This document shows positions 14,819-61,507 of a stretch of 64,000 bases of DNA, in pieces. The translations under genes and the position numbers were made by a program. The DNA lies in assembly GCA_964016885.1 (NCBI GenBank), contig OZ024755.1:18848001-18912000 (forward strand), read 5' to 3'. The DNA is from Eledone cirrhosa. Its lineage: Eukaryota. The notes beneath the pieces are model-generated. The model saw nothing but the letters and a program-made list of their open reading frames with translations, ran no database searches and was not told where the DNA came from. Each line of letters begins with the position of its first letter. Position 1 is the first letter of the stretch.

Positions 14819-14987
14819 TATATGAAAAATTCGGGATGGCTGATCTCCTGCCATTTCAACAGTTAGATCCGAACTGAATAGGCGGTGTAAAAACGGCACA
14901 AATTTTTCATATTACCCACTCTAATACCCCAAGTATCAAGTGCTCTGGGGAGTAATGGTCTAACTGGTTTTTACAGCATCCATTCTG
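14819..14987 (+). mobile_element. PLE-like terminal fragment (short inversion + hairpin tail)
   Basis: atatgaaaaatt...aatttttcatat inverted ends; tail tacccactctaataccccaagtatcaagtgctctggggagtaatggtctaac is homologous to 56440+ and 61451+. Confidence 0.65.
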
Positions 14988-14988
14988 A

Positions 14989-15245
14989 TCATCATCATCA
15001 TCATCATCGGGTTTAGCGTCCGTGTTCCACGCTTGCATGGGTTTGGACGGGGGTTTTCCCACTTGAGGCAAGAGTGGTTGTCTTGCTCGCATAGGACTGT
15101 CTGGCGGGTTTTCTACAGTTGGATGCCCTTCCTAACACCAACCACATTTACAGTGTGGGGCTGCGAGGTTTTTACCGTGTTGCCTACACGGCCACATTTA
15201 CAGCATGGACTGTGTGTTTTTTTGTCGTGACACCTACATATCTCT
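14989..15245 (-). mobile_element. RTE LINE (family C) 3' UTR fragment
   Basis: Matches 56650-56900; (cat)n tail. Confidence 0.85.
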
Positions 15246-15411
15246 GATATATATATATATATATATATTACCAATGGAAACATTGTTTCCTCAGTCCGAT
15301 TTGACGAACTCCATCCCACTCATTAAGTGAATGGTGATTGAGGTCAGGGATCATATCGATTAAATATTGACATATATATATATATATATATATATATATA
15401 TATATATATAT

Positions 15412-15608
15412 ACTGTTAGTTCTTGCGTTACTTTGGTATTGTGTGGTTGGGTTTTGCCTTCCGCAATGTTCAATTTGTCAAGCTATTTAAATGTATGTTA
15501 TTACTCTAAGGACCTACCCTTATTGAGTGCTTTGCTAACTCATTCCTATTGTAGGTCGACTTTGCTTGCCCACAGCCTAAGCTTCGATTTTACTAAGCTT
15601 CTACTTGT
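15412..15608 (+). mobile_element. (TA)n-flanked PLE-like tail fragment
   Basis: actc-taaggacctacccttatt-gagtgct hairpin at 15503-15531; (TA)n on both sides. Confidence 0.5.
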
Positions 15609-15660
15609 ATATATATATATATATATATATATATATATATATATATATATATATATATAT

Positions 15661-15938
15661 TATGGTTAACATGCAAAATCTATATAAGCTCAAGTCTATT
15701 TTCATTTCACTACTGGTTCAGTGTATGTCACTGATGAGAGATTAACGAATCATGAAACAGCTGTCTGGCATTCTCAATGGCTACTGCGATACTTGCGACA
15801 TGTTCACAGACCAAATGAAAGAAAATTATTATTATTTAATGAAAAAATATTTTTTCTTTGATAGCAAGTCTCTCATATGTTTATTGTATAAACATATAGT
15901 ATATGCTTCCATATACAACTATTTTAGTGCTACTGCCT
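15661..15938 (+). mobile_element. (TA)n-flanked PLE-like fragment carrying a hammerhead ribozyme
   Basis: Non-repetitive insert between (TA)n tracts containing the HHR at 15725-15771. Confidence 0.65.
15725..15771 (+). ncRNA. Minimal type I hammerhead ribozyme motif
   Basis: Stem I ATGTCA/TGGCAT, core CTGATGA, stem II GATT-aacg-AATC, GAAA, palindromic stem III A-CAGCTG-T, GUC cleavage triplet. Confidence 0.8.
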
Positions 15939-16068
15939 ATATATATATATATATATACATATACATATATACATATATATGGGTGTGTGTGTGTGTTTGA
16001 TGATGCATGTGCATATAAATATGCGTACATATGTGAGAGTATATCTGTTTCTAAATTTAATGTATATA

Positions 16069-16410
16069 CATCATCATCATTATCATCATTTTACATCCGC
16101 TTTTCCCTGCTTGCCAGGGTGGGACGGGAACTGATTCTGGCTTGATTTCTACAGCTGGATGCCCTTCCTAACACCAACCACATTTACAGTGAGTGCTGGG
16201 TGCTTTTTTTTCCATGGCTCCTCCACGACCACTTTGCAGTGGAATGATATGGACCCCAGTCCCTATCATCTCATTTATACAGCTGAGTAAACTGGAGCAA
16301 TGTGAAATAAAGTGTCTTGCTCAAGGAAACAACACATCACCCGGTCTGAGAATTGAACTCACAACCTTTCGATTGCAAGACCAATGCTCTAACCACTAAG
16401 CCATGTGCCT
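16069..16410 (-). mobile_element. CORE-like SINE (family B)
   Basis: Reverse complement of 61666-62011. Confidence 0.92.
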
Positions 16411-16536
16411 TATGGATATAACATTTTTAATATATGCCTGTGTATGTCTATAGAACCCCAGAGCTATGTATGTATATATTTATGAATAGGTGGCTAAACA
16501 GACAGATAGATAGACAAACAGATAGAGGGACAGAAA

Positions 16537-16606
16537 GATAGATAGATAGATAGATAGATAGATAGATAGATAGATAGATAGATAGATAGATAGATAGATA
16601 GATAGA
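16537..16606. repeat. (GATA)n microsatellite
   Basis: Seen directly. Confidence 0.95.
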
Positions 16607-17160
16607 CATATGCCAGCTAAATGCAATTTCAGCATAATTGCATGACTCCAAAGCAAATTAAATTCCTTAAGAAGCTGAAAGACAATAAATTCAAATGAGC
16701 TGTGGAAATGTAGAATGATTACAGCTGAGGAGAGGTAATGTAGGCAACTTGGTAATGATTTAGAGATTCAGAACCAACAGGAATGAGAACTGGGTGAGCA
16801 GATGTTCTAAACATTTGATTAATGATATCCAGGGTTAAGAATGGTCAAGAAGAAGAAAAGTGAAAATGAAGAAATGTTCTGTCTTTGACAATAAAACTAA
16901 TAAATAAAGTCTGTTACTATGTTATTTGAAAAGCAAAACCTTATTCAAAATTAACTTAATTTCATTTATTTTGCTAGGTAATCATCAACCTTCTAAATTA
17001 GATTAAATAATTAAGTTTTACCCACACATATGCATTTATTTGCAATGGCATGTGTTTGCAAATTCATGCAAGACTAGAAAGCAACTGGTTTTCTATGTAA
17101 TTCTTCTAAGTTACTTTAAGAACCTACCATAATCATCATTATCATCATTTAAGTTCCATT

Positions 17161-59354: not shown

Positions 59355-59556
59355 TAATGGTTTCTTATATAGGCACAAGGCCATCAATTTTGGGGTAGGG
59401 GAAAGTCGATTAAATTGACCCCAGTGCGTGACTGGTACTTTATTTTATCGACCCCGTAAGGATGAAAGGCAAAGTTAACCTCGGCGAGATTTGAACTCAG
59501 AACATAACTCTATGTTGCAAAGCATGGTGTCCGACTCTCTACTGATACAGCCAATT
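59355..59556 (-). mobile_element. Family A SINE (long variant)
   Basis: Consensus match. Confidence 0.85.
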
Positions 59557-59974
59557 AGCATTATGGTTGCCAAAACAAACATATTGTTATAATATTCCAT
59601 CTTTGTAGGCTACACAAATATACTGATATGAATAATCTACTGATATATAATAGACTTGTGTATTTGTCTGTCACACACTAGAGATGACTGAGGAAGGAAG
59701 GTGTATGTTTGTGTGTTTGTATCACTTGTGTGAGTGAGCGTGAAGGAACCAACCAACCAACCAACAAACATTTCTTTTTTATATTATGTATAGATATTAC
59801 AATTAGCCGTCAATTTTGATGGAAACGGGGGAGGGGGGGGGGGGCAGCTAATATCTTGTATATTTATGACTTGTCTGTAATGAAGCATTATATAAGATAG
59901 CAAAATTGTTTCTGTGGCTATGAATAGAAGAAGAATATAAGTTTAAAAATAAAGATAATCAACAAAAAACTAAG

Positions 59975-60470
59975 GAGTGTGAAGAAGTGAGAAGAAAGAT
60001 ATAACATAAGAAGGAAACCTTGATAGAGAATGAAGGGGGACGGAGGAAGGGAAGGATAGAGATACATAAATAAGAGAATAGGAAAAGGAAGAGGAGTGTG
60101 TATGAAAGAGAGGAGGTGGGTGTGAAGATAGAAATAGGCAGGGTGAAGGTAAGAGTATAGAGAGAGAAGGGGAGGAGTTGGTTAAATAGGGAGAGGTGGA
60201 GGTGGTAAAATAGAGAGAGGAGGGATGGAGGTGCTAAACTAAAGAGAGGAGGGGTTGGAGGTGGTAAAATAGAGAGAAGAGAGAGGAGGGGTTGGAGGTG
60301 GTAAAATAGAGAGAAGAGAGAGAGAGGGTGGTCAAATAAAGAGGTGGAGGTAGTAAAACAGAGAGAGGGGTAGATGTAGTGAAGAGGAAGCAAAATAGGG
60401 AAAAAGAGAGAATATGTAGAAAAGGAATGAATATGAGAGCAAGAAGAAAGAAAAGATAGGGGACAGATAG
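59975..60470. repeat. GA-rich low-complexity region with degenerate repeats
   Basis: ggaggtggtaaaatagagagaagagag units. Confidence 0.75.
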
Positions 60471-60830
60471 AGGTTGGTATATCCGAAAAAGACCGATATG
60501 GATGAAAAGGATTCAGAACGAGTTTGGAGGGAAGAAAATAAAATAAAAAAAAAATTAAATAAAAAATAAATAAAATAAAATAAAATAAATGTTTCTGTTG
60601 AAAGTTTAAAGCAAGTAAATGATAGTAATTAAAGCTTCCTCATGTAACTCGTTATGAAATACAGCTGGCTTGAAGTTTATTTTAAGTATCAGTAAAACTA
60701 TTTATAAGGTTTTCTATGGGATACACAAGTTGATGATGTATGGATTCTCTAACATAAGAAGAAAAAAGAGTTAACCACTTCTATGTATATATATATATAT
60801 AGTTATGTAATAAACAACATAAGGCAATTA

Positions 60831-60891
60831 TTCCATTTACCAGTGGTTTCTTAAAAGCAAAAAAATTTTGCTTTCAATCATCAGAATGAAA
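60831..60891 (-). ncRNA. Type I hammerhead ribozyme motif (inverted arm)
   Basis: Reverse complement of 60955-61015, core intact. Confidence 0.75.
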
Positions 60892-60954
60892 AAATCTTGG
60901 TGTTTTATTGACGTTGGATTTTAAAATCCAACGTCAATAAAAACACCAAGATAT

Positions 60955-61015
60955 TTTCATTCTGATGATTGAAAGCAAAATTTGTTTGCTTTTAAGAAAC
61001 CACTGGTAAATGGAA
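60955..61015 (+). ncRNA. Minimal type I hammerhead ribozyme motif
   Basis: Stem I TTTCATT/AATGGAA, CTGATGA, 11-bp stem II TTGAAAGCAAA/TTTGCTTTTAA, GAAA, stem III ACCA-c-TGGT, GUA triplet. Confidence 0.8.
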
Positions 61016-61126
61016 TAATTGCCTTATGTTGTTTATTACATAACTATTAAGCTCTGTTACCTACATAGAGCACTCTTTTTTCCTGGACTTTTCCGATGGA
61101 ATTACTTCATTCATATATATATATAT

Positions 61127-61343
61127 AGAAGTTTTACACAACAGTTAGTTCACCATACCGAGAACAATTGTTTCACCTTAGCGGATCCTCAGCTCGGAAT
61201 GGGCATCAAGACAAGATTGGTGCGCTTTCATCAGATAATTTATTTAATATCATGGAATATTTACTCCAGTAAACTGTTGAGTGCTCTAAATCAGTTATAA
61301 ACATTTATATTTGTCGGATTTCCAACAAATTAAATACAACTAC
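61127..61343 (+). mobile_element. (TA)n-flanked PLE-like element with an antisense hammerhead and hairpin tail
   Basis: Tail tactccagtaaactgttgagtgctctaaatcagttataaac...ccaacaaattaaata is homologous to 30081-30157. Confidence 0.7.
61153..61202 (-). ncRNA. Minimal type I hammerhead ribozyme motif (weak stem II)
   Basis: Minus strand: CCATtCCGAG / CTGAGGA / tCCgctaaGGt / GAAA / CAATTG / TT / CTCGGtATGG. Confidence 0.65.
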
Positions 61344-61361
61344 ATATATATATATATATAT

Positions 61362-61507
61362 ATATGAAAAGAGTCAGCTAGATCCGAATGTTTGGATCTA
61401 GCTGTCGAAACAGCCAGAGCTCAGCTGTCGGGGTCCTGACTCTTTTCATATTACCCACTCTACTACCCTTAGTATTGAGTACTCTGGGGTGGTTTTGAGT
61501 ACTCTGG
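61362..61507 (+). mobile_element. PLE-like terminal fragment with the 3' part of a hammerhead
   Basis: tatgaaaagagtcag/ctgactcttttcata inverted ends; hairpin cagctagatcc..ggatctagctg, then GAAA-CAGC..GCTG-TC; tail actc-tactacccttagtatt-gagtact. Confidence 0.65.

Follow-up and report, generated by a model that had tools for sequence, protein, structure and literature searches.

The window analysed here, a 64,000-nt stretch of the Eledone cirrhosa genome (assembly GCA_964016885.1, contig OZ024755.1, positions 18,848,001 to 18,912,000 of the forward strand), contained a series of mirrored arms. These are 5'-truncated copies of Penelope-like retrotransposons of the Hydra clade, placed head to head within TA microsatellites. 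Full-length elements displayed the order hammerhead, hairpin 1, hairpin 2, ATG, and reverse transcriptase (RT)-endonuclease open reading frame (ORF), and their insertion products came in two forms: (i) inverted copies that ended before hairpin 1 and carried no hairpin and (ii) copies that ended before hairpin 2 and carried hairpin 1 plus a tail. Each hairpin is probably a site at which RT binds the element RNA, and would thereby set the start of copying about 7 nt upstream.

End mapping of inserted copies

Offsets were counted from the first base of a hairpin (0), negative values lying 5' of it. A covariance model of the hairpin was combined with end mapping, and copy ends peaked sharply immediately upstream of the hairpin. 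In 78 random 10-kb stretches (780 kb of genome), 67 copies were scored with 24 clean references: 33 ended at -12 to +1 of hairpin 1, 33 at the tail end, and one elsewhere, eight further matches lying outside the scoring. With seven read-through references, 54 of 58 copies from the random genome ended at most 14 nt before hairpin 1 or 2 (23 before hairpin 1, 31 before hairpin 2, and four elsewhere); three of the four copies placed elsewhere continued, by eye, through diverged sequence to the same sites. Position -7 was covered by 68 of 94 scored inverted ends (site 1, before hairpin 1) and by 85 of 128 junctions at site 2 (before hairpin 2), as counted over selected plus random loci, where 157 of 251 hairpins had no scorable partner. 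A preliminary description of the window had proposed the hairpin as a cis-acting signal fixing an end of the inverted strand, and this proposal was supported: as it predicts, the second insertion end sat at an equal distance before the second copy of the motif.

The same end map bore on the explanation that ends arise from chance pairing of a TA primer with any U/A-rich stretch, the hairpin being a bystander with, for example, a role in translation control. TA microhomology at every junction and the position of hairpin 2 near the ATG speak for it. Only 44 of 230 TAT/ATA triplets lay within 10 nt of a hairpin, and microhomology alone was therefore insufficient to account for the end positions; the 81% of triplets away from hairpins were unused, among them a long stretch of TA within the tail of family C, and sites 1 and 2 peaked at the same offset across families of differing spacing. 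The random-genome end map brought the microhomology-only explanation close to refutation, and we regard it as scarcely credible.

Fold and covariation of the hairpin motif

The generic hairpin pattern had 107,398 matches in the 3.0-Gb, microsatellite-rich genome versus 612 for the reversed control pattern, so the motif was not due to chance; a single hairpin variant alone had 12,804 matches. Clustering of 242 hairpins gave 52 clusters, and 30 family representatives were aligned after clusters 12, 17, 18, 25, 30, 32, and 38 (likely non-elements) and singletons duplicating a family had been left out. The shared fold was composed of a 4-bp stem RCTC/GAGY with a 2-nt 3' bulge (TT, TC, or TA), a variable upper stem and loop, and a following RCT. 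The stem and its covariation had been recognized in the preliminary description, while the constant bulge had been overlooked: upper pairs 1, 2, and 3 were formed with the bulge in 30, 29, and 25 of the 30 families, and in 6, 30, and 6 if it was not assumed. Upper pair 1 was T-A in 19 families, C-G in 10, and T-G in one, and the T-A/C-G switch recurred across several branches of a quick protein tree, whose octopus branch was long and which served for this point alone. Double-change cells numbered 38 versus 15 after shuffling in the 30-family alignment, and 99 versus 36 in an independent set. G-U type pairs exceeded A-C type pairs (14 versus 5 in the 30 families), favouring the sense strand as the structured form, and one family had a UUCG-type loop. 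Rfam at gathering score returned no family for the hairpin or the hammerheads; its three matches in the window were tRNA-like, none on a hairpin.

These pair counts matter for a reading of the hairpins as DNA, in which the GIY-YIG endonuclease would act on a DNA intermediate, nicking it some 7 nt upstream of each hairpin, and the observed ends would represent resolution cuts instead of RT starts. End positions would then be identical, G-T pairs are possible in single-stranded DNA, the text of PMC8557442 attributes the tail to endonuclease resolution, and the Drosophila Penelope endonuclease required the tail for recognition (as cited in PMC11167929). The sense-strand G-U bias and the UUCG-type loop nevertheless fit RNA, and both tail ends are RT starts in vitro in the Poseidon element PAc of the lizard Anolis carolinensis, according to the text of Frangieh et al. 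2024 (PMC11167929). Between the two options first raised for this window, an endonuclease nick or RT priming, priming fits best and nicking is unlikely.

Second hairpin and geometry of head-to-head pairs

Full-length E. cirrhosa elements harbored two such hairpins before the ORF, with a spacing of 67-99 nt. The two-hairpin pattern had 1,568 genome matches versus 268 for the control, some of them rearranged single-family copies, and the fetched examples displayed hairpin 1, hairpin 2, and then the ORF. Among 22 random head-to-head pairs, 21 joined a hairpin-1 end to a hairpin-2 end, one joined two hairpin-2 ends, and none joined two hairpin-1 ends, where independent choice of ends would give about half mixed pairs; the same random set held 21 copies without a pair.

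This asymmetry bears on a model in which the RNA is cleaved immediately upstream of each hairpin, through nuclease or ribozyme activity, and RT starts at the resulting 3' ends. The hammerhead does lie only 45-66 nt upstream in metagenome loci, and the lizard-element RNA-seq read ends given in the text of PMC11167929 coincide with its start sites. Separately cut RNAs would pair randomly, yet 21 of 22 pairs were mixed; moreover, the hammerhead's own cleavage site is further upstream, and the lizard enzyme initiates internally on uncut RNA (PMC11167929, same text). RNA cutting is thus quite improbable.

The lengths of the arms addressed a further alternative, in which only one cDNA is started, upstream of hairpin 2; it would fold back on itself and serve as a template as far as hairpin 1, a stop signal for the polymerase. 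Fold-back copying predicts the same layout and the same 1/2 asymmetry, the two arms differed by no more than 3 nt in 18 of 53 pairs, and self-priming has been proposed for palindromes of Penelope-like elements in the text of PMC3846280. A copy cannot outreach its template on the 5' side, but in 28 of 53 pairs, and in 11 of the 18 random ones, it was the inverted copy that reached further 5' (in seven of the 53 it was the forward copy), which counts against fold-back copying, barring later deletion. The forward copy began inside or after hairpin 1 in four pairs, and long ORF-bearing copies also ended at site 1. We consider fold-back copying highly improbable; the longer inverted copy would fit a trailing enzyme colliding with a leading one on the same RNA.

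In family A (L001-L030 and L111-L218), the 5' ends of both arms clustered at about -60 to -70, a position 3' of hammerhead stem II at which RT may stall.

Hairpins and mirrored arms in the window

The features of the window were as follows, with the strand given where one applies.

14080..14119, short mirrored arm of a family-B copy, ending at -11
14130..14153, plus strand, hairpin 1, family B; tail, then (CA)n, then (TA)n
14820..14912, short head-to-head insert with only about 12 bp mirrored (14820-14831 with 14901-14912)
14918..14944, plus strand, hairpin 1, degenerate copy, 24 bits; tail to about 14989
15503..15531, plus strand, hairpin 1 of another family, with tail and without mirrored arm
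21087..21134, mirrored arms, family D; (GA)n left flank and (TC)n right flank
21138..21166, plus strand, hairpin 1, family D; tail to about 21206
29725..30078, mirrored arms, family C, about 175 nt each, 90% complementary
29795..29829, minus strand, hammerhead core (CTGATGA, stem II, GAAA), inverted copy
29979..30013, plus strand, hammerhead core, forward copy
30082..30105, plus strand, hairpin 1, family C; tail to about 30166, then (TA)n
35596..35631, plus strand, variant hairpin with tgtaa/ttaca stem and 3' end TAT replacing RCT; without mirrored arm
56401..56439, short mirrored arms
56445..56471, plus strand, hairpin 1; tail to about 56517
57801..57853, minus strand, long-loop hairpin copy, with tail and without mirrored arm
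60799..61047, mirrored arms, family B, 98% complementary
60846..60884, minus strand, hammerhead core, inverted copy
60962..61000, plus strand, hammerhead core, forward copy
61051..61074, plus strand, hairpin 1, family B; tail to about 61111, stopping just short of the hairpin-2 site of read-through copies
61263..61285, plus strand, hairpin 1 of another family, with tail and without mirrored arm
61362..61451, mirrored arms, family-A type
61457..61483, plus strand, hairpin 1, family-A type; tail broken by a 20-nt duplication and another repeat

Hairpins were present at all six starts given in the preliminary description (the copy at 14918 being degenerate), and the six mirrored-arm ends it reported were found again at 14912, 21134, 30078, 56439, 61047, and 61451, with offsets of -6, -4, -4, -6, -4, and -6, respectively; the end at 21134 needs a gap in a (CT)n run, the exact mirror ceasing near 21131. 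The blurring of AT-rich junctions suspected there was also observed: the last 2-4 mirrored bases were T/A and could derive from the flanking (TA)n, so that the true join can be placed only between about -9 and -4. That the inversion always stops before the hairpin was correct wherever an inversion existed, but four motif copies in the window had no mirrored arm (15503, 35596, 61263, and 57853 on the minus strand); the arm at the 14130 hairpin ended at -11, outside the usual offset. All five inner stems quoted as covarying were located: tact/agta at 56445 and 61457, taagg/cctta at 15503, tgcat/atgca at 21138, cag/ctg at 61263, and tgtaa/ttaca at 35596. The hairpin at 30082 followed the CAG/TTG register of its family.

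A fixed palindrome resembling a miniature inverted-repeat transposable element was ruled out, the palindrome centres varying between copies.

The element carrying the hairpin

The element itself had escaped the preliminary description: it is a Penelope-like retrotransposon, and the inverted copy and tail appear in the texts of PMC8557442 and PMC11167929. Hammerhead cores were found in both long arm pairs, on the same strand as the hairpin, and also in full-length copies. Longer copies reached ORFs with DKT, YRDD, CxCX5C, YIG, CxxC, and CxH, the Hydra-clade signature according to section 11 of PMC8557442. The assignment to this clade was made by motifs and layout, with published Hydra proteins compared by eye. 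The intact ORF of family A (717 aa, directly after the hairpin pair) had DKT at 117, CxCX5C at 572, YIG at 606 behind the Cys linker, CxxC at 670, and CxH at 698; the same signature motifs occurred in ORF fragments of other families, and an RWK motif was present in family B as against a conservative RWR in family A. Families at 56445/14918 and 21138 are tentatively assigned to Hydra by their shared hairpin and layout.

Pfam and PDB sequence searches with the ORFs returned nothing significant, and the C-terminal GIY-YIG endonuclease is putative, with YIG behind the Cys linker but no Pfam match. The structural model of the 717-aa ORF had a mean predicted local distance difference test score of 90.8 and TERT as top Foldseek match; VIA structural comparison also placed telomerase at the top (Z 16.0, root-mean-square deviation 4.3, 291 aligned residues), tied with other RTs. 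The protein is accordingly modelled with a telomerase-like RT fold. In the model (md5343cdfc290), telomerase matches spanned the N-terminal region (residues 1-120), as did some viral polymerases, and this region is a candidate hairpin-binding domain. Argonauta hians was the only species-named organism among the 120 protein relatives listed.

The pseudo-long-terminal-repeat layout was seen as terminal repeats at locus L092, tandem units at L326, and the 22 head-to-head pairs, and a TA or CA run followed all 54 hairpin-proximal ends. In L326 and L327 (G000:C1:91474000-91491999), no fewer than four units of 3,542 nt lay in tandem; they were nearly identical and held an intact ORF, so family A is likely young.

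In family A, the hammerhead core on the L326 minus strand, some 100 nt upstream of hairpin 1, departed from CTGANGA and read TTGAGA or TTGAAA/TTGACA, a paired change of core positions 3 and 8 that we take to be equivalent to known variants. Another Penelope-like ORF, of non-Hydra type and with its own form of Cys linker, was located at L108:2063-3229 and L094:6854-7342, where the motif hairpin was not adjacent.

Distribution in other animals

A first metagenome scan with one protein gave zero relatives. The octopus-built hairpin model was then applied to 77 metagenome-contig loci of related proteins, some of them near-copies of each other. One copy of the motif lay 45-66 nt past the hammerhead, and another followed after about 60 nt, immediately upstream of the ATG; one fixed descriptor gave 88 sense versus 2 antisense matches, in 48 of the 77 loci, with a tandem pair in 24. 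The A/T share at positions -7 to -5 was 86-93% in this set, which fits short pairing with a TA primer. In 9 of the 18 self-matches listed, the second copy ended at an offset of -1 to -7 from a hairpin; the others were contig ends, read-through tandems, or partial matches.

By eye, the motif was also present in three of six published Hydra consensuses (a coral one and two from sea cucumber) and, as a variant, in the copepod one; the remaining two, without it, both stop short of its site. It was not seen among the non-Hydra matches viewed, seven GAGCGCT matches lying outside that view.

Microsatellites, satellites, and other repeats

Repeats other than TA were found at element ends (window 14153-14210 and 21066-21235; loci L036, L143, L389, and L400). 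(CA)n followed family B tails in 8 of 29 non-read-through cases and never occurred at inverted ends (19 TA, 4 other), and the bases just before family B hairpin 2 were ACA; in family D, (CT)n was mirrored at both ends and matched the bases just before the hairpin. These CA/CT repeats may come from stuttering of the telomerase-like RT, seeding microsatellites; later slippage is a possible alternative source.

Satellite-like arrays with the motif included (i) a tandem array of a 59-nt unit including the hairpin in L027, a satellite born from an element end, (ii) a 183-nt family B tandem at G000:C2:169702714-169703470, and (iii) a 257-nt tandem with both hairpins in L345. The window additionally contained tRNA-like heads of an abundant repeat of short-interspersed-element type (6925-6982, 16346-16403, and 61670-61739) and long minisatellite arrays at 17161-18998 (51-nt unit), 22334-23485 (15 nt), 39889-41048 (16 nt), and 11524-12072 (48 nt).

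Proposed mechanism and known systems

Penelope-like element PAc cuts and extends both strands of an AT-rich target and is a predicted dimer, and as proposed for the elements described here, two internal RT start sites bound its tail (text of PMC11167929); on this basis the hairpins are read as likely RT-binding sites. The element protein would cut both strands of the (TA)n target, and each 3' DNA end would prime cDNA after pairing with 2-4 U/A bases located at about -7 to -4 relative to a hairpin. Both cDNAs, usually truncated, would then be joined head to head, the tail being the interval between the two start sites; two fixed start sites on one RNA would explain why it is one-sided. The least certain step is that both starts lie on one RNA with two protein molecules.

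Several observations weigh against the hairpins as RT-binding sites that set both ends. Family 4 site-2 ends leaned to -9/-8, and TA microhomology blurs junction positions generally. The lower-stem sequence was set by the search pattern, so that its invariance is no independent evidence, and upper pair 2 was unpaired in 7 of 38 metagenome hairpins. Only one hairpin preceded the ATG at locus L254, and searches for read-through copies that include hairpin 2 were negative for the families at 56445/14918 and 21138. Family B hairpin 2 lacked the bulge and the 3' RCT, yet still marked site 2.

In LINE-1 twin priming, both cut ends prime cDNA on one RNA, yielding an inversion. The second LINE-1 start is variable and internal and its parts do not overlap, whereas the arms described here overlap, and RNA structure would fix both starts in the proposed mechanism. 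In the hepadnavirus epsilon stem-loop, and in those elements of telomerase RNA to which the TERT RNA-binding domain attaches, RT binds a bulged stem-loop that determines the copy start; the likeness to the Hydra hairpin, a bulged stem-loop plus RT, is an analogy only.

The Hydra clade, composed of C-terminal-endonuclease Penelope-like elements, already has a published octopus member, Hydra-1_Obim (Craig et al. 2021, PMC8557442). The elements here shared with the clade as described in that text DKT, CxCX5C, CxxC, CxH, the YRDD RT, hammerhead, (TA)n target, inverted 5'-truncated copy, and one-sided tail, but their tails were about 60-95 nt versus 30-40 nt. The main text of PMC8557442 has no occurrence of "hairpin" or "stem-loop", and the twin motif with fixed offset was not found in the literature searched, including PMC8557442, PMC11167929, PMC3846280, PMC4209133, PMC13282606, and bioRxiv 10.64898/2026.07.22.740005, with subscription journals, Repbase reports, and supplement figures outside its scope. 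The earlier suggestion of an undescribed mechanistic motif is consequently kept for the motif only: the element and its insertion layout were known, while the twin hairpin motif and its fixed offset are apparently new, as not found described.

How Penelope-like elements form inverted copies and a one-sided tail is posed as an open question in the text of PMC8557442, and only one such Penelope-like enzyme has been studied in vitro so far. A 25-nt motif that is present twice, at a fixed offset to both ends and with an intact 717-aa partner, makes the mechanism directly testable, and offers both a small RNA tool for work on a telomerase-related RT and an easy means of annotating about 100,000 loci in this genome. 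A broader proposition, which we put forward tentatively as somewhat short of an even chance, is that two copies of one RT-binding motif, conserved from coral to octopod, load two RT-endonucleases per RNA, each of which primes from one end of a double-strand cut, 7 nt before its hairpin, and can stutter, adding short CA or CT repeats in telomerase fashion. If true, programmed double priming would account for the inverted copy, for the presence of a tail on one side only, and for some of the microsatellite load.

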